Below are positions 2,664 to 48,794 of a stretch of 64,000 nt of DNA, one piece after another (within the stretch, counting starts at the first letter, position 1; every line of letters starts with the position of its first letter). Below the pieces are notes generated by a model that made no database searches, had not been told where the DNA came from, and worked only from the letters and a program-made list of their open reading frames with translations. This DNA is from Candidatus Pacearchaeota archaeon. Lineage in GTDB: Archaea > Nanobdellota > Nanobdellia > Pacearchaeales > GW2011-AR1. Where the stretch lies: contig JBAZNV010000001.1 in the NCBI GenBank assembly GCA_041649045.1, forward strand, positions 286,728 to 350,727, in the 5' to 3' direction. A program made the translations under genes and the position numbers.

Positions 2664-3294
2664 ACAATTTTATGAGAAGTTGAAAGAGAGAATTTTGCCG
2701 TATTATGAACAAAGTGTTTCCCACGGGTTCGATCATTCAGAAAGGGTCCTTAGAAATGCGATTAAAATTAGCGAAGGCGAGAATGTAGACATTGATATCG
2801 TAAAAACTTCAGCTATACTTCATGATATTGCCAGACACAAGGAAAAAGAGGGAACTAATGTTTGCCACGCCGAAGAAGGCGCGAAAATAGCAGAAGAAGT
2901 TTTGAGAGAATTAAATTTCCCTAATAATAAAATTCCTCAAGTTGTTCACGCAATAAAAGTTCATAGATACAGTAAGGGTTTGAAAGCAGAAACTCGGGAA
3001 GCAGAAATTTTGCAGGACGCCGACAGGCTTGACGCATTGGGCTCAATTATTCTGGTCAGAATGATTTCCGCCGCTTCTAAAAAAGGAATTCCTATTTACG
3101 ATCCAAAAATTCCTATCAAAAAAGAATATGATGGAAGTAAATCAACGGTAATAAATCATATATATGAAAAAATTTTAAAGATGAAACCGGAAACTTTCAG
3201 AACGAAAAAGGCTCAGGAGATGGCGATGAAAAAATATAAACTAATAGACGACTTTGTAGATAGTTATATTAAAGAAGTCACAGGAGAATTATAA
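2656..3294 (+). CDS. HD domain phosphohydrolase
   Basis: H...HD metal-binding motif (HSERV...LHDIARH) and a downstream D in QDADRLD. Confidence 0.65.
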   Translation: MNEQFYEKLKERILPYYEQSVSHGFDHSERVLRNAIKISEGENVDIDIVKTSAILHDIARHKEKEGTNVCHAEEGAKIAEEVLRELNFPNNKIPQVVHAIKVHRYSKGLKAETREAEILQDADRLDALGSIILVRMISAASKKGIPIYDPKIPIKKEYDGSKSTVINHIYEKILKMKPETFRTKKAQEMAMKKYKLIDDFVDSYIKEVTGEL

Positions 3295-11756: not shown

Positions 11757-12635
11757 TTACTTTCTTATTTTCCCCTCTTGCCAATCTCGAAGAATTGCCC
11801 TTGCCGTTCTATCAATATTTGTTTCTCCAGCTTTTTTCAAAAAACCCTTCTTCTTCCCAAGTTCTTCAATCAAGATTTGAGAATCGCCTTTTGCATCAAT
11901 CTCATAAAATTTTTCAATTTTCTTGGAATTTTTTTGCATCAAAAAATAAACGATATCTTCGGGATTTTTAACATCATTAAATGATCTGGCCCCAACCATT
12001 GCGTCGAATGAAAGATTTTCCTCTTTTGAATTTGAATATTTTTCATCGGGAATCACTCCAGGAGTGTCCAAAATTTGAATTTCGTCTGTCAGCCTGATTT
12101 TTTGCAATCCTTTCGTGAAACCCGCCTGTTTGGATATTTTCGCAGATCCTTTTCGTGTAATAAGGTTAATAAGAGAACTTTTTCCCGTATTCGGATATCC
12201 TATTATCCCAACTTGAATTCTTATTTTTTCTTCCATCTCGACTCTTTTCGCTTCAATTTTTATTCGATTTCTTAAATCCTTGGCGCCTTGCCCCGTCTTA
12301 GACGAAACAAAAACATATGGATACATTTTTCTATCAAGTTCTTTTTCTAATTTGCTGACATCAACCAAATCGCATTTATTCAAAACAAATATGATTTTCT
12401 TGCCTAAATCTTTAATTTTATTTTCAAGTTCAAAATTTCTTGTCTCTTCAATAAAACGCGCATCTAAAACTTCAAGTATAATGTCTGAAATATCGATCAC
12501 TTTTCTAACTACGTCCGGGTATTTTCCTCGTTGTTTCAAAATGTTTGCTATGTGCCCGGTATGCCGAGATCCAAAACTATAACGAACTCTCATGAAAATA
12601 AAAAGGACGGGGAGTTTAAAAATTAGAGTTTTCAC
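11757..12635 (-). CDS. circularly permuted ribosome-biogenesis GTPase (YlqF/RbgA/Nug1-like)
   Basis: Motif order is G4 (NKCDL), then G1 (GYPNTGKSS), then G3 (DTPG), which is the permuted arrangement. The true start is probably an internal Met (MRVRY). Confidence 0.7.
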   Translation of the reverse strand: MKTLIFKLPVLFIFMRVRYSFGSRHTGHIANILKQRGKYPDVVRKVIDISDIILEVLDARFIEETRNFELENKIKDLGKKIIFVLNKCDLVDVSKLEKELDRKMYPYVFVSSKTGQGAKDLRNRIKIEAKRVEMEEKIRIQVGIIGYPNTGKSSLINLITRKGSAKISKQAGFTKGLQKIRLTDEIQILDTPGVIPDEKYSNSKEENLSFDAMVGARSFNDVKNPEDIVYFLMQKNSKKIEKFYEIDAKGDSQILIEELGKKKGFLKKAGETNIDRTARAILRDWQEGKIRK

Positions 12636-12859: not shown

Positions 12860-14581
12860 TTATATATCTTTTTTCAAGCTTTTTTGCAAATGTCTAAAGT
12901 ATTCTTCATCAAAAAAGTTTGCCATTCTTTCTACGATTAATTCCGGCGTTGAATGAGCGAGTCTTCCCATCACGGGATTATGATCTACTATTAAATTAAA
13001 ATTTTCATCAAGGCCCTTCGCTTCTATCCCATCAATCCTGGTGAATTCCGGCAAAGTTTTTTTAATTTCCTGTCCCAGATGTGTCGCAATCACAAGAAAA
13101 CAATTTTTTTTCACGAAATAATCTATTGTTGCTGAAATAATCTTGCCAGCAACGCCCGGCTCTGTAACTGCTTCTATTTCGTCAGCTAAAATCAGTGTCT
13201 GATTACCGGGTTTAATTTTCGACATTTGTGAAAGCAGTGTCTCAAATGCCCCTTTCGAGGCCGAACCTTTATTTTTAGCAAAATAATATATTTCGGAAAA
13301 TATTGGCATATGGATTTCTCCATCAATAGGCAAGCCTAACTGGAACAAGCTTATATTTTGTAAAATATGTTCGAGCAAAGTTGTTTTCCCGCCAGAGTTC
13401 GCACCGGTCAAAACAGAACATTTATTGAATTTATCAAGCTGAAATGAAATGGGTGTTGCGTTTTTTAAGAAAATGTTTTTTGCATCCGAAAAGTATAAAT
13501 TTTCCGAATATATTGGGAATCTTTTTCCTTCATTGATCCATAAATAAATGCCATTGCAAAAATCTTCAACTAAAAGTAAGGCGGACAATTTCTCGAGAAT
13601 TTTTGGAATTTGTTTAAGTTCTTTTGAATTTTTCTTTATTCTTTCAGCCAAATTCGTGAATTCATTCGTGCTTTCTCTTTTTATTTGTGCGTCAAGTTCT
13701 TCGCGATCAATTGTAACTGGAATTTTTATATTGAATAAATGTTCCGGCAAACCGCTTTCCTCAACGCTTTTTCTGATAATTTCAACAATTTTTTGAGGCA
13801 TTTTCCCCTGACCAAGAATATTCAAAAGCCCCTCTCCTGTAATTGTCATCTGCTTGATCTCATGCGAAATTTTCCCATTAATATCTTCGAGCATTCTTTC
13901 AATTTCTGATTCGGAAATGATTTTTCCTTCCTGATTGTCAATTAAATCAAAAAGTTTGGATAAAAAATTTATCAAATCATTCATCTCGTCAGAGGTCTTT
14001 TCTTTCGACAAAACATCAAAATTTTCTTTCCATCCTGAAAGAATTTCAAGGTATCTTTCAAGATAAATATTTTCGATTGAATCAATAAAAATTGTTTGCG
14101 GCAGTCTTTCAAGGAGAATCTTGAAATCATTGCAATCAATCATTTGAATGATATCATATTTTTCTAAATCCAAAATATCATTTTCGCTAATCAATAAAAT
14201 CGCTGTGCATCCGAGCTTATCTAGTTGAACAAATGTCGCTTCGTCTTCGGTAACTGCCGCGATTTCATAACGTGGTTTCCATTTCTTTCTTGGTGCAATC
14301 ATTTTGTTTAAAAAAGTCTTGCCTGATTTTGGAAGTTCTCTGAAAAAATCCTGCCTTCTTTTTATTTCAGAAAAATTTTTTGTAAAATTAAAAAAATTCC
14401 AAAGATTAAATGTGTCTTCGAAAACAAAATTTGCTGAAATTTGGTTAATTAATTTTTGGTGAACCGACCTGGCGTCCCGTGTTTTAAAAATATTTTCTCC
14501 TGAGATTTTAATCAAACTTTTGTCTTCATTAAAAGGATTCAGATTATTTGTTATAGCAAAATCCATAAGTTCCTCTTTCAT
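12860..14581 (-). CDS. MutS-family ATPase (archaeal MutS2-like)
   Basis: MutS domain V Walker A (TGANSGGKTTLL), downstream DE Walker B, and ABC signature-like region. Confidence 0.7.
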   Translation of the reverse strand: MKEELMDFAITNNLNPFNEDKSLIKISGENIFKTRDARSVHQKLINQISANFVFEDTFNLWNFFNFTKNFSEIKRRQDFFRELPKSGKTFLNKMIAPRKKWKPRYEIAAVTEDEATFVQLDKLGCTAILLISENDILDLEKYDIIQMIDCNDFKILLERLPQTIFIDSIENIYLERYLEILSGWKENFDVLSKEKTSDEMNDLINFLSKLFDLIDNQEGKIISESEIERMLEDINGKISHEIKQMTITGEGLLNILGQGKMPQKIVEIIRKSVEESGLPEHLFNIKIPVTIDREELDAQIKRESTNEFTNLAERIKKNSKELKQIPKILEKLSALLLVEDFCNGIYLWINEGKRFPIYSENLYFSDAKNIFLKNATPISFQLDKFNKCSVLTGANSGGKTTLLEHILQNISLFQLGLPIDGEIHMPIFSEIYYFAKNKGSASKGAFETLLSQMSKIKPGNQTLILADEIEAVTEPGVAGKIISATIDYFVKKNCFLVIATHLGQEIKKTLPEFTRIDGIEAKGLDENFNLIVDHNPVMGRLAHSTPELIVERMANFFDEEYFRHLQKSLKKDI

Positions 14582-15825: not shown

Positions 15826-16086
15826 GTGTTTGAAACAAAAAAGCCAGACATTGTTTTTAAGATAAATAACATTGAATATGCGATTGAAGTTGAAACTGGA
15901 AAAATACTTAAGCATAACACAAAACAGCTTTTAGAAAAAATAAGATTATTAAAAAAAGATTTTGGAGACAACTGGTTTTTTGTAGTTACTAATAGAAAAG
16001 ATTTCAAAAAATACAATCAATTAGGAAAAACACTTACAAAACTGACCTTGATAAATCAGTTAAACAAAATTTTAAAAAATAAATAG
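15826..16086 (+). CDS. hypothetical small protein (possible minimal nuclease-like fold)
   Basis: 86-aa ORF. The PDIVF...IEVETGK arrangement is loosely PD-(D/E)xK-like. Weak. Confidence 0.2.
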   Translation: MFETKKPDIVFKINNIEYAIEVETGKILKHNTKQLLEKIRLLKKDFGDNWFFVVTNRKDFKKYNQLGKTLTKLTLINQLNKILKNK

Positions 16087-16188: not shown

Positions 16189-17262
16189 TTAATTATTAAT
16201 TAATTTTCTTTTACATTTCGCCTGATAAATCATACTTGCTACTCTTTTTCTTATTTTATAGCAATTAGCCCATTTTGCATGCGCATTCCATCCCTGAAAC
16301 GATTCCATTAACTGATTATGACTTATCCAATCCTTTTCATACTTTTTAATTTTAGAAATTATCTTTTTATAATTTCTTTTCCTTAAAAGTTTAAAATAAA
16401 AAAAATTTCTAAAGCCAACGAAATCGATACCTTTTGAAAGAGGTTTTACTTTAGATTTATCCTGATGCAATTCAAGTTTGAGGTCTTGTTTTAGAAAATT
16501 ATTAATTCTAATTTTCCAAATCTCTAATTGAATTTTATTTTTATGAAATAATATGAAATCATCGACATATCTAATATAATATTTTGCTTTTAGGGTATGT
16601 TTTGCAAAATAATCGAGTTTGTTTAGATAAACATTAGCTAAAAATTGCGAGGTAAGGTTTCCCAAGGGCATTCCAATGCCATTATTAATTTCTCCATTTA
16701 CCAATATTTTTTTAATTAGATTGATGAATTTTTCATCTTTAATTTTTTCATCTAGAATTTTTAATAATATTTCATGGTTAATTTCCATAAAATAATGGCG
16801 GATGTCTGCCTTCAAACAATATCCTTTTACAAAATTATTATTCAATTTTTTAGAGGATAATTCTCCATTATTTGATACCTTTTTAAAACATAAATGGAAC
16901 CTTTTAAGTGCAAACAAAGTTCCTTTGCCTTTTCTGTTTGCGCAACAATCATATATGAATATTTTTTCATATATGGGTTCTAATAAATTTATAATTGCAT
17001 GGTGAACTATTCTATCTCTGAAATGTGCTTTAGAAATTTTTCTAGTTTTTGGGTCACGTAGTATAAAAGTCTTAAGGGGTCTTGGAGAATAGGTTTCATT
17101 TATCAATTCTTTCTGCAAATCATCAAGACTATTTATTAAATTTTCCTGAAATTCTAAAACATAAGGTTTTCTTGTTTTACCTTTTCTGGCTTTTTTCCAC
17201 GCTAAGACTAAATTATTATAATCACAAACTTTTTCATAAAGATTATTATATGTTTTCACCAT
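16189..17262 (-). CDS. diversity-generating retroelement (DGR) reverse transcriptase
   Basis: RT motif 2 region (ANRKGKG), motif 4 LGNLTSQ matching the DGR-specific [IL]GxxxSQ, and motif 5 YVDD. ~357 aa, the typical DGR RT size. Lies immediately downstream of the template repeat. Confidence 0.85.
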   Translation of the reverse strand: MVKTYNNLYEKVCDYNNLVLAWKKARKGKTRKPYVLEFQENLINSLDDLQKELINETYSPRPLKTFILRDPKTRKISKAHFRDRIVHHAIINLLEPIYEKIFIYDCCANRKGKGTLFALKRFHLCFKKVSNNGELSSKKLNNNFVKGYCLKADIRHYFMEINHEILLKILDEKIKDEKFINLIKKILVNGEINNGIGMPLGNLTSQFLANVYLNKLDYFAKHTLKAKYYIRYVDDFILFHKNKIQLEIWKIRINNFLKQDLKLELHQDKSKVKPLSKGIDFVGFRNFFYFKLLRKRNYKKIISKIKKYEKDWISHNQLMESFQGWNAHAKWANCYKIRKRVASMIYQAKCKRKLINN

Positions 17263-17303
17263 TTTAAAAACACCTCTTTTCCCCGTTGTAAATACTTTGG
17301 CTA

Positions 17304-17413
17304 TTCCGAGCGAAGAATTCTCGTCTAAAATTTTATTTTTAAATTTCGAGTTTGACGGATCCCTGTTGCAATTGAAATTAGCCCTGTCGGAGTCCGCGTT
17401 GAACCTCGCAACA
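17304..17413 (-). repeat. DGR template repeat (TR)
   Basis: Intergenic copy of the sequence at 17674..17756. Every mismatch between the two copies is an A in this copy (minus-strand sense). Contains a 27-nt A-rich segment absent from VR. Confidence 0.75.
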
Positions 17414-17632
17414 CACTAGCAGTTTCATCCAAATAGACACCACAACTTTAATATTCGCTCATTTTCAAGGAACTTTACTTTCTTGAAAGTATCTTTGTTA
17501 CTAACTATTGTTGTTGAATTTTATGCAGAAAGCGAAACTTTCTGACTAATGAATCTGCATGTAGCCAAAATATTGGATTTACAACATTCGGGCGAAATTA
17601 TTAAAAAATGATGCTTTTTAAAATTAACTTTG

Positions 17633-18373
17633 TTAACTTTTTTGCGCGCTGGCGCCTTCGGCGCATGCATATACCCCGAGCGAAGAATACGAGTCTGACG
17701 GATCCCCGTTGCAATAGAAATCAGCCCAGTCGGAGTCCGCGAAGAACCTCGCAACAGAACCAGAAACTGGCGCCCAATAATATAAATTTCCATCCAAAAT
17801 ATTTTGAGAAGGTAACCCATGAGAGTTATTTGAATCAAGCCAGCTATCAAGCGAAATTCCTGGAGTTTTGTTTTGTGTAAGATAATCGGTTACTTTTTGA
17901 GAAAGATTTTTCCTGATTCCTTTCTCGATAACTTTTTCGGAAATCATATAAAGTTCTTTCTTTCTTTCCTGAAATTTTACATTAATCCAGTTTGATCGCC
18001 AAGGGCTTCTCACCTCGGTAATTTCTTTATACAAAGGATTTTTAGAATCACGAAGATATTTAAGAAATTCTCTAAACTGGTAAGGTGTAGGCATAAAAAG
18101 ATTTTGTTTTTCTAATTCTACTTGAGTATCATTCCAATTTCTTCCTAAATGCATCCTTTCGGGCGAAAAAGAAAGATTTAATGATGGAACATAAATCCAA
18201 TCGCCAGATATTTCCGCTGGATTAACGAGCTCAACTTCAGTTTCAATTTTAGTTTCTTCTCTTGTTTCCTTTTTTTTAGGTTTTCCTCCTGAAGTTCTAA
18301 GTGGCGCACTCTCGGCTATCTCGATTAAACTTCTTTGTTTTGGCAAATATGGTTTTATAAAATTAGGATTCAT
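17633..18373 (-). CDS. DGR target (variable) protein with C-terminal variable region
   Basis: The 3' end contains the VR. The C-terminal GNLYYW...SVARFFADSDW...GVYACAEG region is loosely reminiscent of CLec/FGE-type VR scaffolds. Start overlaps the stop of the upstream ATPase. Confidence 0.65.
   Translation of the reverse strand: MNPNFIKPYLPKQRSLIEIAESAPLRTSGGKPKKKETREETKIETEVELVNPAEISGDWIYVPSLNLSFSPERMHLGRNWNDTQVELEKQNLFMPTPYQFREFLKYLRDSKNPLYKEITEVRSPWRSNWINVKFQERKKELYMISEKVIEKGIRKNLSQKVTDYLTQNKTPGISLDSWLDSNNSHGLPSQNILDGNLYYWAPVSGSVARFFADSDWADFYCNGDPSDSYSSLGVYACAEGASAQKS
17652..17664 (-). other. GC-rich hairpin immediately 3' of VR (gcgcc-gaa-ggcgc on the coding strand)
   Basis: 5-bp GC stem with a 3-nt loop about 10 nt downstream of the VR end. 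This is the position where DGR VR hairpin/cruciform elements occur. Confidence 0.5.
17674..17756 (-). repeat. DGR variable repeat (VR)
   Basis: Matches the TR except at positions where the TR has A. Substitutions fall in TR codons AAC, AAT and AGG, giving TTC, GAT, TAT, GAC, TGG and GGG in frame. Confidence 0.75.
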
Positions 18374-19778
18374 TTTTCACTGGGTTTTTTTTATAATATT
18401 TAGATAGAGAATCAATATAACCTTTAAGCCAATCAATTCTTATTCCCTTTTTTTCTCCAAAACTCTTATCAAATGGACTTACAACTTTATAAGAAAAATC
18501 TTTTTTTCCTTTCAGAACATCAAGGTTTCTCTTTTGATCCTCAGAATAAACTCTTACTTCTTTATCTCCTCCTTGTTGAATTTCAATAAATCTATCTTCA
18601 GCTTTTCCATCATAAACTGCCGACTGAATAGCCGTGTCGATATAAGATCTTATGGGCTCTATTTTTTCTCTTATTTTACTCACAACATCTCTCATTTGCT
18701 CTTGGTCCTCTCCGCTATAAGTTGAAAGGGTTTCAACGCCGTTAAGATTTCCATGATAAGTCGTAAACTTAAAAGATTCCAAAGCTAAATCAAAAGGGTC
18801 TAAACTGATTCCGGGATGCTTTAAGCCGATTATAAAGTTTACAGCATTAGCGAATCTTTTTAGAAGCTGGCTGGTCCCGGTATTTGACTGTTTTACAAGA
18901 GAGCATATATCTTTTCCCTGACGACTGCAACCGCCACACCTTGAAGGCCACATTTTCTTTTTTAATCCGTCTGAATCTTCTGCACAATAGTCAAGTCCCG
19001 AAGAAAACATACGAATGTAAGCTTCAAGCCATGGTTCTCTTTTCCTGGAAGCTTCACTAATCTTCTGATATGCTTCAATAATTTTGCCTGAAATATCTCT
19101 TACTTCTGCCTGTTCCCTTCCTGTCCTTTGTGCTAAAACCTCTTCATCATCATCTGTTTTTCTGAAGTAATCAAAATCAAAAGTTACCCCAAAACGATTT
19201 AAAAGTGCTCGGTTTATTTGAGAAGTTCCAGCGAAATCTCCATTAACTCGATTTAAATTACATGACGCCATAAATAAATGATAACCATCCTCACCCAATC
19301 TAACACCACGATGTTCTCCTTCGGCCATTCCAAAAAATTCTACTTGAACCTCAGGGATTGCAAGATTTATTTCATCTACTATGTTGCATAATGCCTTTAC
19401 CCTTTCCACAACAGGAACCTTCGACTCATAAAGCATACCCTTTCCCTCGCCTACTTTTGTCTGGTCAATTGTTGTAAAGTATGCGTCTGAACTAAAATCA
19501 TTTCTTGCAACATTCCAGTTTGATTTTCCTCCATTGTCCGCACTTCCGCCAAAATAGCACTTGTGAATATCTCTCATCAACTGGCTTTTCCCGCAACGCG
19601 TGTCTCCAATATTTAGAAAAGAAACTCCCGCTAACACTGCTGCTTTCGGAACATCATAAAAAGGCACTGCAATCAGCTTTTTTTCTCCATTTTTGTCATA
19701 TCCCTCAATCCGCATCGCTTCTCGAGAGCCGACAAATGTAGGCAAGTCCAAATCTTTATACTCTAATTCATTGCTCAT
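18363..19778 (-). CDS. MoxR-like AAA+ ATPase with C-terminal extension
   Basis: Walker A GDTRCGKSQL, Walker B IVDEINLA, and the MoxR-type sensor region ...NRALLNRFGVTFDFDY (like ALLDRF). The ORF track begins at a TTG (19784); the ATG at 19778 is the more likely start. Confidence 0.65.
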   Translation of the reverse strand: MSNELEYKDLDLPTFVGSREAMRIEGYDKNGEKKLIAVPFYDVPKAAVLAGVSFLNIGDTRCGKSQLMRDIHKCYFGGSADNGGKSNWNVARNDFSSDAYFTTIDQTKVGEGKGMLYESKVPVVERVKALCNIVDEINLAIPEVQVEFFGMAEGEHRGVRLGEDGYHLFMASCNLNRVNGDFAGTSQINRALLNRFGVTFDFDYFRKTDDDEEVLAQRTGREQAEVRDISGKIIEAYQKISEASRKREPWLEAYIRMFSSGLDYCAEDSDGLKKKMWPSRCGGCSRQGKDICSLVKQSNTGTSQLLKRFANAVNFIIGLKHPGISLDPFDLALESFKFTTYHGNLNGVETLSTYSGEDQEQMRDVVSKIREKIEPIRSYIDTAIQSAVYDGKAEDRFIEIQQGGDKEVRVYSEDQKRNLDVLKGKKDFSYKVVSPFDKSFGEKKGIRIDWLKGYIDSLSKYYKKNPVKNES

Positions 19779-19917
19779 TTCCAATTTCCTCCTTCAATAG
19801 CCTATTTAAGCTATATTCTAAAACATGAGATTTGCTTCTATATTTGCCTTCTTCTAAAAGTCTTTCTATCAGCTTAATCTTTTTTTCATCAATTGTTACA
19901 CTTAATTTTTGCTTCAT
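19768..19917 (-). CDS. ribbon-helix-helix (CopG/antitoxin-like) small DNA-binding protein
   Basis: 49-aa ORF not in the supplied track (MKQKLSVTIDEKKIKLIERLLEEGKYRSKSHVLEYSLNRLLKEE...). Beta-strand plus two helices pattern. Stop overlaps the ATPase start. Confidence 0.45.
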   Translation of the reverse strand: MKQKLSVTIDEKKIKLIERLLEEGKYRSKSHVLEYSLNRLLKEEIGNEQ

Positions 19918-35057: not shown

Positions 35058-36101
35058 ATGGTGATTGAAAAAGAAAAAAGTTTCTTTGATTTTATAAAAT
35101 TAGTGTCACCAGGGATGCCATTAAGAACGGTTGTCAACGATCTTGTTGAATCGGGACTGGGCGCAATAATTGTTTTTGATTCTCCAGAACTTCATGAACA
35201 AAATCTTTTTGAAGGTGGATTTAGAATTAATTGCAGGTTTACTCAACAAAAACTGTTTGAACTCTGTAAAATGGATGGGGGGATTATTGTTTCTACGGAT
35301 TTGAGCAGGATACTTTATGCAAATGTCTTGATGACGCCCGATAATTCACTTCATACCCACGAAACCGGGACCAGGCACAAGGCAGCCGAAAGGATTGCGA
35401 AACAAGCAAAAACTTTTGTGATAGCTGTTTCGGAAAGAAAAAGAAAAACTACATTGTATTACTCAAAAACAAGATACTATCTAAAAACCGTCGATGAATT
35501 AATTAGAGGAATTAGTTCCATACTTCAGGTGCTTGAAAAACAAAGAGAAATTTTCGATGATCTTCTGAATAATCTTAACATACTTGAAATGTCAGAACTC
35601 GTTTCTGTAAGCGATGTTTGCAAGGTCATACAAAGAGCCGAAATGATCCTGAAAATTTCCGACACAATAAAAAAGAATTTTACAGAACTTGGGAAAGAAG
35701 GAAGTATTATGCAGATGAGGTACCGTGAACTCGTTCGGGGAATTGAAAAAATTGAGAACGAAGTTTTAAGAGATTATTCTATAATTTCCCTAAAAAAATC
35801 GACGACACTTTTATCGAACCTTACTTATGACGGGCTGCTGGATATCGAATCAATTTCAAGATTAATCATAGAAAAGCCTTTGGAAGAAAGCATTTCGCCG
35901 AAAGGTTTTAGGTTTTTGTCGCACTTGACTCTTGCAGAAAAAGAAATTTCTCAAATCGTAAAACAATTCGGAAACTTAAGAAATATCTTGATAAGCGACT
36001 CCTCGAATTTCGAAAATATTCTTAAAGGTCGTGCAAGCAAAATGAAAGAAGAAATTTTGAATTTGAAAGAACAAGTTTTGAGTGGGAAGGTGGTTTGCTA
36101 A
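35058..36101 (+). CDS. dacZ: diadenylate cyclase (DAC domain; archaeal DacZ-like)
   Basis: DAC motifs DGGIIV (DGA-like) and HETGTRHKAAERIAKQAKTFVIAVSE (the GTRHRAA..vSEE signature). Confidence 0.75.
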   Translation: MVIEKEKSFFDFIKLVSPGMPLRTVVNDLVESGLGAIIVFDSPELHEQNLFEGGFRINCRFTQQKLFELCKMDGGIIVSTDLSRILYANVLMTPDNSLHTHETGTRHKAAERIAKQAKTFVIAVSERKRKTTLYYSKTRYYLKTVDELIRGISSILQVLEKQREIFDDLLNNLNILEMSELVSVSDVCKVIQRAEMILKISDTIKKNFTELGKEGSIMQMRYRELVRGIEKIENEVLRDYSIISLKKSTTLLSNLTYDGLLDIESISRLIIEKPLEESISPKGFRFLSHLTLAEKEISQIVKQFGNLRNILISDSSNFENILKGRASKMKEEILNLKEQVLSGKVVC

Positions 36102-36273: not shown

Positions 36274-37320
36274 ATGCTATCACAAAAACAACTTGATGAA
36301 ATTAGAAAACATCTTGAAAATTCGCAAAATCCACTTTTCTTTTTCGATAATGACGTGGATGGACTTTGTTCGTTTTTAATTCTAAGACGAGCGATTGACA
36401 GGGGCCGTGGTATACCAATAAAATCATTCCCAGATTTAAAAGAACAATATTTAAAAAAAGTAGAAGAAATCCTGCCAGATTCAATTTTTATTTTGGACAA
36501 AGCCGAAGTCAGCGCAGAATTTATTTTTGGCGTGAAAGAAAAGGGTCTTCCGATTATTTGGATTGACCACCATGAATCAAAAACACCAAAAGAAATAATA
36601 AAGAATACTTTTTATTTTAATTCGATGCCGACGGCAGAACCAACAACTTTTATTGCACAAAATATTTTTAAAAGGAAAGAAGATTTATGGCTCGCCCTAA
36701 TCGGATGTATTGGGGATGTTTATATGCCGAAATTCGCTGAAAGTTTTGAAAAAGATTCGCCGGAACTTTTTAATTCTAAGCTTTCAGCCTTCGAAGCACT
36801 TTATTTAACAGAAATCGGGAAAATGGCAAGAATGCTAAACTTCGGGCTGATGGACACGACGACGAATGTTGTGAATATGATAAAATATCTTTTCAGGGCA
36901 AAAAATAGCTACGATCTTTTTGAAGAAAATACTTTCACAAAAAATTTACATAATAAATATAGGAAACTTAATGAGTTTTATTTTAAACAAATAAGCAAAG
37001 CTGAAGCAAATTTTAAAGAAGATTCTAAGGCAATTTTTTTTTCATACGCCGGGACAAGCATGTCATCCGAAATTGCAAACGGATTATATTTCAAACATAA
37101 AGACAAGCTGATCGTCGTCGCATTTAAAAGACCCGATAAAATAAATATTTCCATAAGAGGCAAAAATGCGCTCGAAATAACAAAAAAGGTTATACAAAAA
37201 ATTGATGGCGCAACTGGCGGCGGGCACAAAGAAGCAACGGGAGCCATGATTCCTGTTGATAAATATGAAAACTTCAAAAAAGAAATATTAAAAATACTTG
37301 ACGAATCTTCGTCCTTATAA
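36274..37320 (+). CDS. DHH/DHHA1 family phosphoesterase (NrnA-like)
   Basis: DHH motif (IWIDHHESK), N-terminal FDNDVDG aspartates, and C-terminal DHHA1 GGGH motif (GGGHKEATGA). Confidence 0.7.
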   Translation: MLSQKQLDEIRKHLENSQNPLFFFDNDVDGLCSFLILRRAIDRGRGIPIKSFPDLKEQYLKKVEEILPDSIFILDKAEVSAEFIFGVKEKGLPIIWIDHHESKTPKEIIKNTFYFNSMPTAEPTTFIAQNIFKRKEDLWLALIGCIGDVYMPKFAESFEKDSPELFNSKLSAFEALYLTEIGKMARMLNFGLMDTTTNVVNMIKYLFRAKNSYDLFEENTFTKNLHNKYRKLNEFYFKQISKAEANFKEDSKAIFFSYAGTSMSSEIANGLYFKHKDKLIVVAFKRPDKINISIRGKNALEITKKVIQKIDGATGGGHKEATGAMIPVDKYENFKKEILKILDESSSL

Positions 37321-45743: not shown

Positions 45744-48700
45744 TTACTCCCAATAAATTCCTGCTTTTCCCGGCTTGGCTCTTTTTGAATGATTTTCAGG
45801 GTCGTGTTTTTCTGAATCATTTACTGCGTATACCTTGACATTTTTTCCAAGCTCTTTTGAAATTTTTTTTGCGTCCACTTGAGCTATTTCGAATGGCATT
45901 ATGTAAACAAAAACCTCCCTTGGGGTTTCATTCGTTTTTCCAAGCTGATACCTTATATCTTCAATTATTTTTTTATTTAAATCTTCTTTGGATTCTTTTT
46001 GTTTAATTTTTATTTCAGCTGGTTTTGGCCATTCGCTATTTGAAATGAAATTTTTATTTCCGAGTTTTGACCAAAGTTCTTCGGTGATGTGAGGGCAGAT
46101 TGGATTTAGAATTTCTAAAAACTTCTCAAGCGAATCTTTAGATGCCCCATTCTTCTCAATCAAATCAAAAAGCTCGCGGATTTCTATTGTCGCTTTTCTG
46201 TATTCAAAATTTTCATAGTATATCGTTATGTTTTTTATTGTTTTGTTTAATTTTATTTTTAATTCATTTGAATCTTCTATGAATTTTAAATTTTCAAAAT
46301 AACCGAACAATCTTTTTACAAATCTCATACTTCCATTAATACCATTTTCATCCCAGTCTATATCTTTATCAGGCGAAGCAAGTCCTGACATGAAAAACCT
46401 CGCAGTATCAATACCATATTTGTCAGAAACAACTTCGGGCAACACGACATTTCCCTTAGATTTTGACATTTTTTCTCCGCCTTCTGCTCTTAACATTCCC
46501 TGATGGAAAAGTCTTTTCGCGGGTTCTCTGAAATCTATCAATCCCAAATCAGCGAGGAATTTTGTATAAAATCTTACATAAATTAAATGCATGCAAGCGT
46601 GTTCCGCGCCGCCGATGTAAGTATCAATTGGACACCAGTATTTTACTTTGTCGCTGTCAAATATTTTTTTATTATTTTTCGGGTCGCAATATCTCATAAA
46701 ATACCACGACGAATTTACGAAGGTATCCATCGTATCAGTCTCTCTCTTTGCATCGCCGCCACATTTAGGACATTTTGCATTTACCCATTTTTCATTTGTT
46801 TCAAGCGGGTTTCCTTTGCCGAATTTTACATCTTTTGGAAGTTCAATTGGCAAATCTTTTTCTGGGACAGGAACGACACCACACTTTTCGCAATGAATAA
46901 CAGGAATCGGAGTTCCCCAATATCTCTGACGAGAAATAAGCCAATCACGAAGACGGAAATTCACAACTTTTCGGGCAACACCTTTGGAAATAAGCCAATC
47001 AGGAATTTTTACTAAGGCTTCTTCGGTTGGTATACCATTAAAAGAAATTTCATTAGTTTCGCTATCGACTAACTCTCCTGCACCAGTATAGGCTTCTTTT
47101 TTATTGTAAATTTGGTCCGCGACTAATTCATCTTTTGGGGCAGGTGGTGCAATCACCTGATTTATAGGTATACCATACTTTTTAGCAAACTCGAAATCTC
47201 TCTGATCGTGAGCAGGAACCGCCATGACCATTCCACTACCATAATCTGCTACAACAAAATTTCCTGCATAGACCGGAACCTTCTCTCCCGTCGCTGGATT
47301 GATCGCATACGAACCTGTAAAAACGCCTTCCTTATCCAAATCCTCAACTTCTTTCATCGTCTTCTGCGAAACGCCGCCAATCTTTTTCAAAAAAGCATCA
47401 ACATCTTTCTTCTGTTCTTTTGTCACAAGTTCGTTTAATCTTGTATGCTGCGCCGACACAACCACAAAAGTCACACCAAAAATCGTGTCCGGTCTTGTCG
47501 TAAAGATCGACCAAGGTTTTTTCGACAAACAAGCTTGTAAAATTTCGGGTTCTTCAATCGAATTAAAATGAGGAGATTTTGCAATAGTTGTAATAAGCTT
47601 TGCAGAAAGTTTATCGGCGATCTCTCTTCCCATTTCAACTCTTAGAAGGTGATCTTTTTCGTCTATCAAAACTATAATTTCCTCTGCATGTTTTTTAACT
47701 TCTTCAAAATTAAATTTCCAATCACAACAGTTATCAATTGCAGGTCTACTTTTTCCATCTTTTGCTTTGCTCATAGAAGGAGTTGCAACTAAGATTAATT
47801 TCTTTATTTTCGTTTTTAGTTTAGACAATAATTTAAGGGCAAGGACTCCGCCTAAAGAGTGAGTTACTATTATGGATCTTTCATTAAAGTTATATTTTTT
47901 TATAACAAATTCAACTTGTTCTTCAATATTCGGTTCAGAAGGATTGGGAAGATCAGGTGCAAAGCAAACCTTACCTCCGTTTTCTTCTATTTTTTTTGTA
48001 AGCCATGGCCAAAAAACACTTTTTGAGTTATCCTTATATGCATGAAAAAAAACAAATTCTGAATTTTTTATCTCTTCAGGGTTAACAATTTCAAACTCAA
48101 TTTCCGTTCCGTGACTTTTTCCAATCCAGTTTTTTTGCATAGCTTTCGTTCGTGCGGGCCAGTTCAAATTATCAATTTCTTCGTAAAGCTCGTCGGCGTA
48201 ATCTGTGATTTTCAAATACCACTGTTTGAGGTGTTTTATTTCAACGTCTGTCTTGTCGTGAATCCAGCATTTCCCATTAACGACTTGTTCATTGGCGAGC
48301 ACGCTTTCGCATTTTGGACACCAATTTACAGCCGAAGTTTTTTGATAAGCCAAACCCTTTTCAAACATTTTCAAAAAAATCCACTGGTCCCATCTATAAA
48401 AAAATGGATCCGCTGAAGAAAGTGTTCTGGACCAATCATAAGAAAGTCCGATTGCCTTTTGTTGTTTAACGAAATTAGTGATTGATTTGTCGGTATAATC
48501 TTTTGGATGAATACCAACCTTTATTGCCGCATTTTCTGCCGGCAGACCCAATGCGTCATATCCCATCGGATGAAGAACGTTGTAGCCGTTCATGATTTTG
48601 AATCTTGCGATAATGTCGCCAATCGTATAATTCCATGCGTGCCCCATGTGAAGCCCGGACCCCGACGGATAAGGGAACATCTCAAGAACGTAATATTTCG

Positions 48701-48794
48701 GTTTCTTACTTTTTTCGCTTACCTCAAAAATTTTCTCTCTTTCCCATGCATCCTGCCATTTCTTTTCGATCTCTTTGAAGTTTATTTCGGTCAT
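45744..48794 (-). CDS. leuS: leucyl-tRNA synthetase, bacterial type, with an inserted alpha/beta serine-hydrolase domain
   Basis: HMGH (PYPSGSGLHMGHAWNYTIGD), KMSKS (KMSKSKGN), and CP1 editing domain (TTRPDTIFG). 1016 aa, about 180 aa longer than typical. Confidence 0.9.
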   Translation of the reverse strand: MTEINFKEIEKKWQDAWEREKIFEVSEKSKKPKYYVLEMFPYPSGSGLHMGHAWNYTIGDIIARFKIMNGYNVLHPMGYDALGLPAENAAIKVGIHPKDYTDKSITNFVKQQKAIGLSYDWSRTLSSADPFFYRWDQWIFLKMFEKGLAYQKTSAVNWCPKCESVLANEQVVNGKCWIHDKTDVEIKHLKQWYLKITDYADELYEEIDNLNWPARTKAMQKNWIGKSHGTEIEFEIVNPEEIKNSEFVFFHAYKDNSKSVFWPWLTKKIEENGGKVCFAPDLPNPSEPNIEEQVEFVIKKYNFNERSIIVTHSLGGVLALKLLSKLKTKIKKLILVATPSMSKAKDGKSRPAIDNCCDWKFNFEEVKKHAEEIIVLIDEKDHLLRVEMGREIADKLSAKLITTIAKSPHFNSIEEPEILQACLSKKPWSIFTTRPDTIFGVTFVVVSAQHTRLNELVTKEQKKDVDAFLKKIGGVSQKTMKEVEDLDKEGVFTGSYAINPATGEKVPVYAGNFVVADYGSGMVMAVPAHDQRDFEFAKKYGIPINQVIAPPAPKDELVADQIYNKKEAYTGAGELVDSETNEISFNGIPTEEALVKIPDWLISKGVARKVVNFRLRDWLISRQRYWGTPIPVIHCEKCGVVPVPEKDLPIELPKDVKFGKGNPLETNEKWVNAKCPKCGGDAKRETDTMDTFVNSSWYFMRYCDPKNNKKIFDSDKVKYWCPIDTYIGGAEHACMHLIYVRFYTKFLADLGLIDFREPAKRLFHQGMLRAEGGEKMSKSKGNVVLPEVVSDKYGIDTARFFMSGLASPDKDIDWDENGINGSMRFVKRLFGYFENLKFIEDSNELKIKLNKTIKNITIYYENFEYRKATIEIRELFDLIEKNGASKDSLEKFLEILNPICPHITEELWSKLGNKNFISNSEWPKPAEIKIKQKESKEDLNKKIIEDIRYQLGKTNETPREVFVYIMPFEIAQVDAKKISKELGKNVKVYAVNDSEKHDPENHSKRAKPGKAGIYWE

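Follow-up and report, generated by a model that had tools for sequence, protein, structure and literature searches.

We describe a diversity-generating retroelement (DGR) whose template repeat (TR) appears to be interrupted by a very small intron. The element lies in 64,000 nucleotides (nt) of DNA from Candidatus Pacearchaeota archaeon (GenBank assembly GCA_041649045.1, contig JBAZNV010000001.1, positions 286,728 to 350,727 of the forward strand); this whole stretch is called the window, and coordinates count from its first nucleotide. The TR holds 27 nt that are absent from the variable repeat (VR) of the target gene, and a comparable segment is found in 14 distinct DGR loci of DPANN archaea. 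We regard it as probable that a clade of DPANN DGRs keeps a bulge-helix-bulge (BHB) intron of 16-27 nt in the TR, which the host tRNA-splicing endonuclease and ligase remove. Removal at the RNA level, and the part of the endonuclease EndA and the ligase RtcB in it, we infer from DNA alone, that is, from the relationship between TR and VR, the adenine-only changes flanking the segment, its recurrent and exact absence from VRs, the geometry of the motif, and the homologies of the reverse transcriptase (RT) and the target.

A complete DGR in a Pacearchaeota genome

The element is a real and complete DGR, located on the chromosome in a metagenome-assembled genome of a Pacearchaeota (DPANN) archaeon, and as a DGR it belongs to a known archaeal group and has nothing out of the ordinary. 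Its parts are listed below, together with the initiation of mutagenic homing (IMH) sequences that end the two repeats.

17302..17413, minus strand: TR, intergenic; 112 nt in the DNA, 85 nt without its internal 27-nt segment
17345..17413, minus strand: 5' exon of the TR, terminating in ...AACTCGAA, from junction mapping
17318..17344, minus strand: TR-only 27-nt segment ATTTAAAAATAAAATTTTAGACGAGAA, absent from the VR; proposed BHB-type intron
17302..17317, minus strand: 3' exon of the TR, ending in IMH* GGAATA (17302..17307)
17672..17756, minus strand: VR, 85 nt, inside the target open reading frame (ORF) 17633..18373; ends in IMH GGGGTA (17672..17677)
17652..17664, minus strand: GC hairpin GCGCC-GAA-GGCGC with a GAA triloop, within the target ORF, 7 nt 3' of the VR
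17633..18373, minus strand: target gene, 246 amino acids (aa); its C-terminal domain has a C-type-lectin fold and carries the VR
16189..17262, minus strand: DGR reverse transcriptase gene, 357 aa; motifs LGNLTSQ and YVDD; Pfam RVT_1 at 7e-19

An earlier note on this DNA had proposed a TR/VR pair with mismatches at adenines only, and pairwise alignment confirms it: over the 85 aligned nt there are 10 substitutions, all 10 on a TR adenine (P=2e-7 for this to occur by chance, with 22 adenines in the 85-nt TR). The seven codon pairs that it had read in frame from TR to VR (AAC to TTC, AGG to TGG, AAT to GAT, AAT to TAT, AGG to GGG, AAC to GAC and AAT to TAT) are all correct, and they are followed by GGA ATA in the TR and GGG GTA in the VR. 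The A-degenerate pattern of the TR matches only the TR and the VR in the window, where the chance expectation is 0, and the same scan gives no second VR for this TR in the 64 kb. A database search with the window protein sequence returned one copy only.

Other statements of that note held in part. The two near-identical copies were both recovered, but they are not collinear, the TR being longer by 27 nt. The spacing of about 370 bp applies to the last 21 nt, whereas the first 67 nt are spaced by 343; two repeat families, with spacings of 343 and 370, arise because the TR copy holds 27 extra nt. The last codon pair, AAT to TAT, exists only once these 27 nt are removed from the TR, which went unremarked. 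The reading of the element as a complete DGR is supported, but it was itself incomplete, as both the 27-nt TR-only segment and a conserved structured RNA, RT-16, had been missed.

The assignment of the RT to the DGR clade, whose motif 4 is [I/L]GxxxSQ, is made from similarity scores together with this motif. Both LGNLTSQ and YVDD, noticed earlier, are present in the protein. Its best relative of solved structure is the 328-aa chain 8ub7_A (E=6e-42, end-to-end over residues 2-337), to whose IGSLTSQ and YMDD they align; the deposit is named only 'Reverse transcriptase', and we take it, from the look of its sequence, to be the Bordetella phage DGR RT. Competing classes score lower (group II intron RTs 1e-19, retron-type RT 7e-19), and the NCBIfam group II and retron models fall far under their cut-offs; grouping with these classes had been named as an outcome that would speak against a DGR, and by these scores the RT does not group with them. 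The absence of an avd-like gene, also remarked before, is borne out near the cassette by the ORF list and Pfam, which give no Avd-like ORF between or beside its parts; one small ORF lies close by (15826..16086), without a Pfam match to Avd. Avd is not universal among DGRs, and its lack does not exclude membership.

The arrangement of the cassette is likewise that of a DGR. The VR is placed at the 3' end of a protein-coding target with a C-type-lectin fold, the 3' end of the TR is 39 nt from the RT start codon (17262), and the two expected cis elements, the difference between IMH and IMH* (GGGGTA versus GGAATA) and a hairpin downstream of the VR, are both present, the latter where it had been placed before. 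Nanoarchaeal DGRs have been described (Paul et al. 2015, PMC4372165) with the IMH TGGGGT, the IMH* TGGAAT and GRA-triloop hairpins inside the target gene, and the IMH/IMH* pair and GAA-triloop hairpin of the window agree with these motifs.

A segment confined to the template repeat recurs in DPANN DGRs

Scans with the RT protein gave 26 genome loci and 80 metagenome loci (numbered with an L below). Most of these RT-related loci have a VR, a TR and an RT, adenine-only differences, and repeats that are collinear up to the GGAAT/GGGGT boundary. In 14 distinct DPANN DGR loci, however, the TR contains a segment of 16-27 nt that the VR lacks and that occupies the same place throughout, 16-17 nt before IMH*. 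The segment-bearing loci are the window, L007, L010 (the same as L069), L011 (L067), L014 (L078), L020, L029, L030, L037, L042, L045, L052, L058, L061 and L073 (L074). All the named hosts among them are DPANN archaea; a Patescibacteria relative has a contiguous TR. The ends of the segment are conserved, with AACTCGAA before the first junction, AT directly after it, and (A/G)ACG(A/G)GAN up to the second, although TR sequences and target proteins vary between loci. Segment lengths of 16, 18, 20, 22, 23, 24 and 27 nt are mostly not multiples of three; the VRs are nonetheless in frame and of a length typical of the family.

The junction was located by direct offset scanning of TR against VR, as a 3' exon of 16-19 nt is too short for BLAST. 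The window alone allows a junction anywhere from 0 to 4 nt after CTCG, and of these offsets 2 is the one that suits all the related loci as well. When all offsets were tried against the VRs, the choice that retains 2 nt past CTCG and takes up the TR again 2 nt past CGAG (the 2/2 offset) left zero non-adenine mismatches in 8 of 10 loci and was the single most parsimonious solution in L007, L010, L014, L020 and L058; the 3/3 offset, less parsimonious, is the only other candidate pair with adenine-only mismatches. Under the 2/2 rule, gapless alignments of about 85 nt are obtained between the TRs and 11 VRs from 9 loci. The total mismatches number 11 in L007, 12 in L010, 12 in L069, 14 in L020, 11 in L058 and 10 in the core of the window, with no non-adenine mismatch in any of the six, and adenine substitutions occur on both sides of the junction as well as on the two bulge adenines that are retained. 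Two loci depart from this pattern. The sole VR found for L014/L078 (7..93) is degenerate, with 11 non-adenine mismatches, and is either decayed or not cognate; the VR of L042 (1980..2059) is longer than the spliced TR by a single T, through a frameshift or else an error of assembly.

One pair of loci bears on whether such elements still cycle. A stretch of 3957 bp that contains the TR with its segment is the same in L010 and L069, which belong to different assemblies, apart from 4 positions (L010 5441, 5442, 5448 and 5453), all of them VR adenine sites in the 3' part of the VR; two lie 5' of the junction, one is in the junction codon, on a retained bulge adenine, and one is 3' of it. Since the two differ only at VR adenine sites, homing appears to have proceeded from a segment-bearing TR to a segment-free VR, and the pair looks like the trace of a recent, partial and 3'-biased homing event across the junction.

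These data weigh on the possibility that the difference between TR and VR arose in DNA, either because the TR gained an insertion or the VR a deletion recently and the element no longer cycles, or because cDNAs carry the segment and selection lets through only rare products that have lost it. With one locus alone, an insertion after the last homing would have been possible. But the segment occupies the same site in 14 diverged loci and its interiors have diverged, which means that it is old; TR and VR are still identical at non-adenine positions, L010 and L069 show fresh homing with the segment in place, and random deletions would not be expected to yield an identical junction in 11 VRs. We therefore consider a DNA-level origin very improbable.

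In a neighbour-joining tree of the RTs, all 14 segment-bearing loci fall in one of two major clades, amid segment-free relatives, and the closest RT relative of the window (63% identity) is without the segment. The targets that go with segment-bearing TRs belong to at least two unrelated families. There is no second copy of the segment motif in the window, and two matches to it in viral contigs were judged to be chance, with no RT nearby. As a separate observation, several related DGRs (L003, L009, L012, L013, L031, L054, L065, L073 and L080) have two or three VRs per TR, and some multi-VR relatives are ordered TR, RT, targets, with the VRs downstream of the RT; in L073 the TR segment is absent from both VRs.

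Geometry of the segment

The elements of the fold in the window are as follows.

17347..17350, minus strand: 5' strand CUCG of the central helix, pairing with CGAG at 17320..17323
17344..17346, minus strand: AAA bulge, directly after CUCG
17324..17343, minus strand: inner hairpin h', UUUAAAA / loop AUAAAA / UUUUAGA

Two aspects of this fold are shared by every segment-bearing locus. First, an invariant A/A mismatch outside the central helix (CUCG/CGAG; CGGG replaces CGAG in one lineage) limits it to exactly 4 bp in 14 of 14 loci; second, the 3-nt bulge is AAA in all 14. The inner stem h' has 3-7 bp and is maintained by compensatory changes (UCU/AGA, UUU/AAA, UUUUC/GAAAA, UUUAUU/AAUAAA and UUUAAAA/UUUUAGA); in the loop-trimmed alignment it is paired in 95.5% of cells, against 32-55% with slid partners, and its second pair covaries (CG in 8, UA in 5, UG in 1). 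The motif is predicted in both the minimum free energy and the centroid fold of the whole 330-nt RNA from RT-16 through the TR, and in 12 of 15 local folds. The junctions obtained from the offsets fall after the second A of the AAA bulge and 2 nt after CGAG, and are thus symmetry-related across the 4-bp helix; this is the canonical BHB cut position within the bulge, as at intron position 37/38.

The 3' side is less regular. The three nt after CGAG are A-N-N in every locus, and in the predicted folds they make up a bulge of 1-3 nt or an internal loop of 3x3. A clear outer helix h is confined to some of the loci, namely L007 (CCCUC/GAGGG), L014, L029 and L037 (GCAGAA/UUCUGC) and L011, and in L029 and L037 it is nearly canonical. 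A BHB motif consists of two 3-nt bulges separated by a 4-bp helix, and relaxed HBh', hBH and BHL forms are processed by EndA variants of broad specificity (PMC5829648). Such variants are reported for DPANN lineages, and among those reported are loop-bearing ones with a link to disrupted tRNA genes (PMC5829648). At best, the predicted motif fits the relaxed HBh' class rather than the strict BHB. The canonical hBHBh' motif was rejected for most loci, the outer helix and second bulge being irregular, and a ribozyme was rejected as well, the segment being too small and without an Rfam match.

Several points count against a BHB intron. The 3' splice site lacks a clean bulge of 3 nt, and in many loci the outer helix is either weak or inconsistent; the hairpins are rich in A/U and of unremarkable stability (z-scores from +0.8 to -1.9); the central helix is invariant in sequence and so provides no covariation. 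The strong conservation of the motif (AACUCGAAAU...ACGAGA) could mean that it is read by a sequence-specific factor, for example the RT itself. Finally, neither EndA nor RtcB was found in the 64-kb window, where 48 ORFs of 140 aa or more were covered, although the contig extends to at least 415 kb and this is accordingly weak evidence.

A rival reading is discontinuous reverse transcription, in which the RT would skip the hairpin on an unspliced RNA, passing from the point 2 nt 3' of CGAG directly to the AA that follows CUCG, with the conserved hairpin or the RT-16 domain perhaps as a guide. The segment does fold as a hairpin, its sequence is conserved far beyond the need of a nuclease that recognises structure, and for other DGRs slippage of the RT has been given as the cause of unequal TR and VR lengths (PMC5758913). 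On the other hand, the piece removed is staggered: the 5' strand of the helix and two bulge nt stay, and the 3' strand and two nt go, which is the signature of BHB cleavage and not of a jump across the base of a hairpin. Moreover, donor and acceptor sites have no microhomology (the 3' exon begins U/C..., the segment AU...), the stems are weak, and the junction is identical in 11 VRs with no nt gained or lost. The differences noted by Wu et al. (2018, PMC5758913) concern 7% of DGRs and are ascribed to slippage at AAC repeats; slippage of that kind adjoins these repeats and alters the length of the VR, whereas here the VR does not vary in length, and what the TR has in excess is a structured element that is conserved. 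We consider skipping by the RT unlikely, while giving it some weight.

The same DNA evidence would suit any precise removal at the RNA level, by a different nuclease and ligase, for instance, or by an EndA cut after which the RT switches template between unligated exons. RTs related to those of group II introns do switch templates end to end, which counts for the latter variant. However, junction nt are neither extra nor missing in the 11 VRs, the geometry is specifically BHB-like, and a sensitive Rfam scan of 17000..18000 yields no ribozyme family, RT-16 being the sole match. Another processing route of this kind is, in our judgement, improbable.

A structured RNA precedes the template repeat

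The interval between the target stop codon and the TR is occupied by RT-16, and the following features belong to the putative template transcript.

17411..17592, minus strand: RT-16 (Rfam RF03019), a structured RNA that adjoins the TR on its 5' side and ends at the first TR base
17615..17623, minus strand: TATA-like box TTTTAAAAA, read from the sequence; its centre is about 27 nt upstream of where RT-16 begins
17577..17592, minus strand: RT-16 5' end CCCGAAUGUUGUAAAU, which pairs with 17281..17293 in the full-length fold
17281..17293, minus strand: AUUUACAACGGGG, which follows closely on the TR and is complementary to 17577..17592

The match to RT-16 covers the full model (positions 1-158) at 81.9 bits, against a gathering score of 50, and there is no second RT-16 in the window. 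In 17 archaeal DGR loci, the window and 16 related ones, RT-16 directly precedes the TR, and in the related loci too it ends at the first TR base. The motif was found near RT genes, and in the available part of their report its discoverers assigned it to no element, tying only RT-10 to DGRs (Weinberg et al. 2017, PMC5737381). Here, by contrast, it lies next to the TR and its 5' end can pair with the 3' flank of the TR, and this orphan RNA motif can now be placed as the 5' domain of the DGR template RNA in the clade.

Comparable A/T boxes (e.g. AAAGTTTATTAAG) are found at an equal distance in related loci, which suggests that the TATA-like box is an archaeal promoter and that the TR RNA begins at the 5' end of RT-16. 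That end is complementary to the 10-25 nt 3' of the TR, and although the sequences vary the pairing is kept in at least eight other loci; complementary pairs were seen in L073, L011, L018, L025, L014, L058, L007 and L015, with duplex energies from -11 to -24 kcal/mol. As folded, this long-range closing helix would enclose both RT-16 and the TR, in competition with the local 5' hairpin of the Rfam model.

A proposed route from template to target

We propose, with somewhat more confidence than doubt, that host EndA and RtcB splice the TR RNA before mutagenic reverse transcription. A minus-strand RNA would first be transcribed from the RT-16 element through the TR. Within it, the TR would carry a 27-nt intron of the relaxed HBh' type, made of the CUCG/CGAG helix, the AAA bulge and the hairpin, with its 3' site 2 nt past CGAG; EndA would cleave both bulges behind their second nucleotide, and the exons would be joined by the RNA ligase RtcB. 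The DGR RT would then copy the spliced 85-nt template, misincorporating opposite adenines, and the cDNA would replace the VR at the 3' end of the target gene, guided by the IMH GGGGTA and the GAA-triloop hairpin, so that up to about 12 codons could be recoded. The split may also keep the TR DNA from serving as a homing or recombination target.

Two kinds of observation lend this route plausibility. When the td group I intron was engineered into the Bordetella TR it was spliced, and the spliced RNA was the cDNA template (Naorem et al. 2017, PMC5703328). In addition, a Woesearchaeota contig with a related DGR (L018) holds at 11846..11979 (minus strand) a tRNA-Leu(UAA) gene whose anticodon loop is interrupted by 49 inserted nt, as identified with Rfam, and the lineage thus splices introns of this type. 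ARAGORN in bacterial mode missed this tRNA gene.

Comparison with known systems

The nearest described elements are the DGRs of Nanoarchaeota (DUSEL4; Paul et al. 2015, PMC4372165). They share with the window a DPANN host, the GGGGT IMH versus GGAAT IMH*, a GC hairpin with a GRA loop in the target gene, the lack of a clear Avd, and the order target/VR, TR, RT, which the earlier note had also given for the window. The searchable text of that paper describes neither a TR-internal segment nor a 5' structured RNA, both of which are found in the window. From the DGR of Bordetella phage BPP-1 (bRT/Avd/TR-Sp RNA) the window differs further, in that no Avd was detected, the structured RNA is 5' of the TR (RT-16) and not 3' of it (Sp, Rfam RT-10), the TR is only 39 nt from the RT start codon, and the TR has a natural intron-like segment.

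With the archaeal BHB introns of pre-tRNA, pre-rRNA and a few pre-mRNAs, the segment shares the 4-bp helix, a 3-nt bulge followed by a second helix, putative cuts that are symmetry-related after the second bulge nt, the short length (16-27 nt) and the archaeal host. It differs from them in that the substrate would be the template RNA of a retroelement, in its relaxed (HBh'-like) 3' site, and in the unusual conservation of its sequence. The engineered td intron (PMC5703328) likewise sits in a TR, is removed from the RNA and leaves the spliced RNA as the template for adenine-mutagenic cDNA, as is proposed here; it is an artificial intron of about 400 nt that splices itself, whereas the present one is natural, 16-27 nt long and presumably spliced by enzymes.

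The searchable literature, which excluded the main survey of DPANN DGRs (Paul et al. 2017), holds no prior report of a BHB intron in a DGR template. If the proposal is right, the segment would be the first case both of a natural intron in a DGR template and of a BHB intron in the RNA of a retroelement; each VR would be a genomic cDNA record of archaeal splicing, DGR activity would be tied to the tRNA-splicing machinery of the host, and archaeal BHB splicing would gain a new class of substrate. The element would then be the natural counterpart of the engineered-intron experiment, and its intron-less VR would provide DNA-level evidence, in uncultivated archaea that are beyond the reach of genetics, of information passing via a processed RNA. 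The segment also offers a small and defined substrate, about 60 nt long, for studies of the specificity of DPANN EndA. On the practical side, programs that look for TR/VR pairs expect collinear repeats and will truncate such TRs at 67-68 nt or log a slippage indel; surveys of archaeal DGRs may therefore under-call or mis-describe them.

Genomic context and other observations

The neighbours in the window are housekeeping genes, encoding UvrA, UvrC, the GluRS/GlnRS-type, ProRS, LeuRS and TyrRS/TrpRS-type synthetases, GatB/E, Kae1, deoxyhypusine synthase and PEP synthase/PPDK, and the element is thus chromosomal and not viral. A related locus holds a fragment of archaeal small-subunit rRNA.

Upstream of the target gene, and overlapping its start by 11 nt, is a 473-aa ORF (18363..19784, minus strand) with a P-loop-like motif, GDTRCGKS, and with no family in Pfam, NCBIfam or PADLOC. 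Its sole homologue among the fetched loci is weak (26% identity; L003 1173..2207, upstream of the first VR of that locus at 2917..3048), and on this account a role as conserved partner of DGR targets was rejected. Two genes from the DGR, near uvrC and uvrA, a 573-aa ORF (12860..14581, minus strand) has weak, sub-threshold matches to MutS domain V and AAA_14 and may be a divergent MutS-like ATPase.

Farther away, the leucyl-tRNA synthetase (45744..48794, minus strand; 1016 aa) matches Pfam Ser_hydrolase and alpha/beta-hydrolase at residues ~265-412, an unusual hydrolase-like insertion that separates the catalytic core from the editing domain. A DisA-type diadenylate cyclase (DAC and DisA-linker; 35058..36101, plus strand) adjoins a DHH/DHHA1 phosphoesterase (36274..37320, plus strand), and together they look like a pair for the synthesis and degradation of c-di-AMP in a DPANN archaeon.

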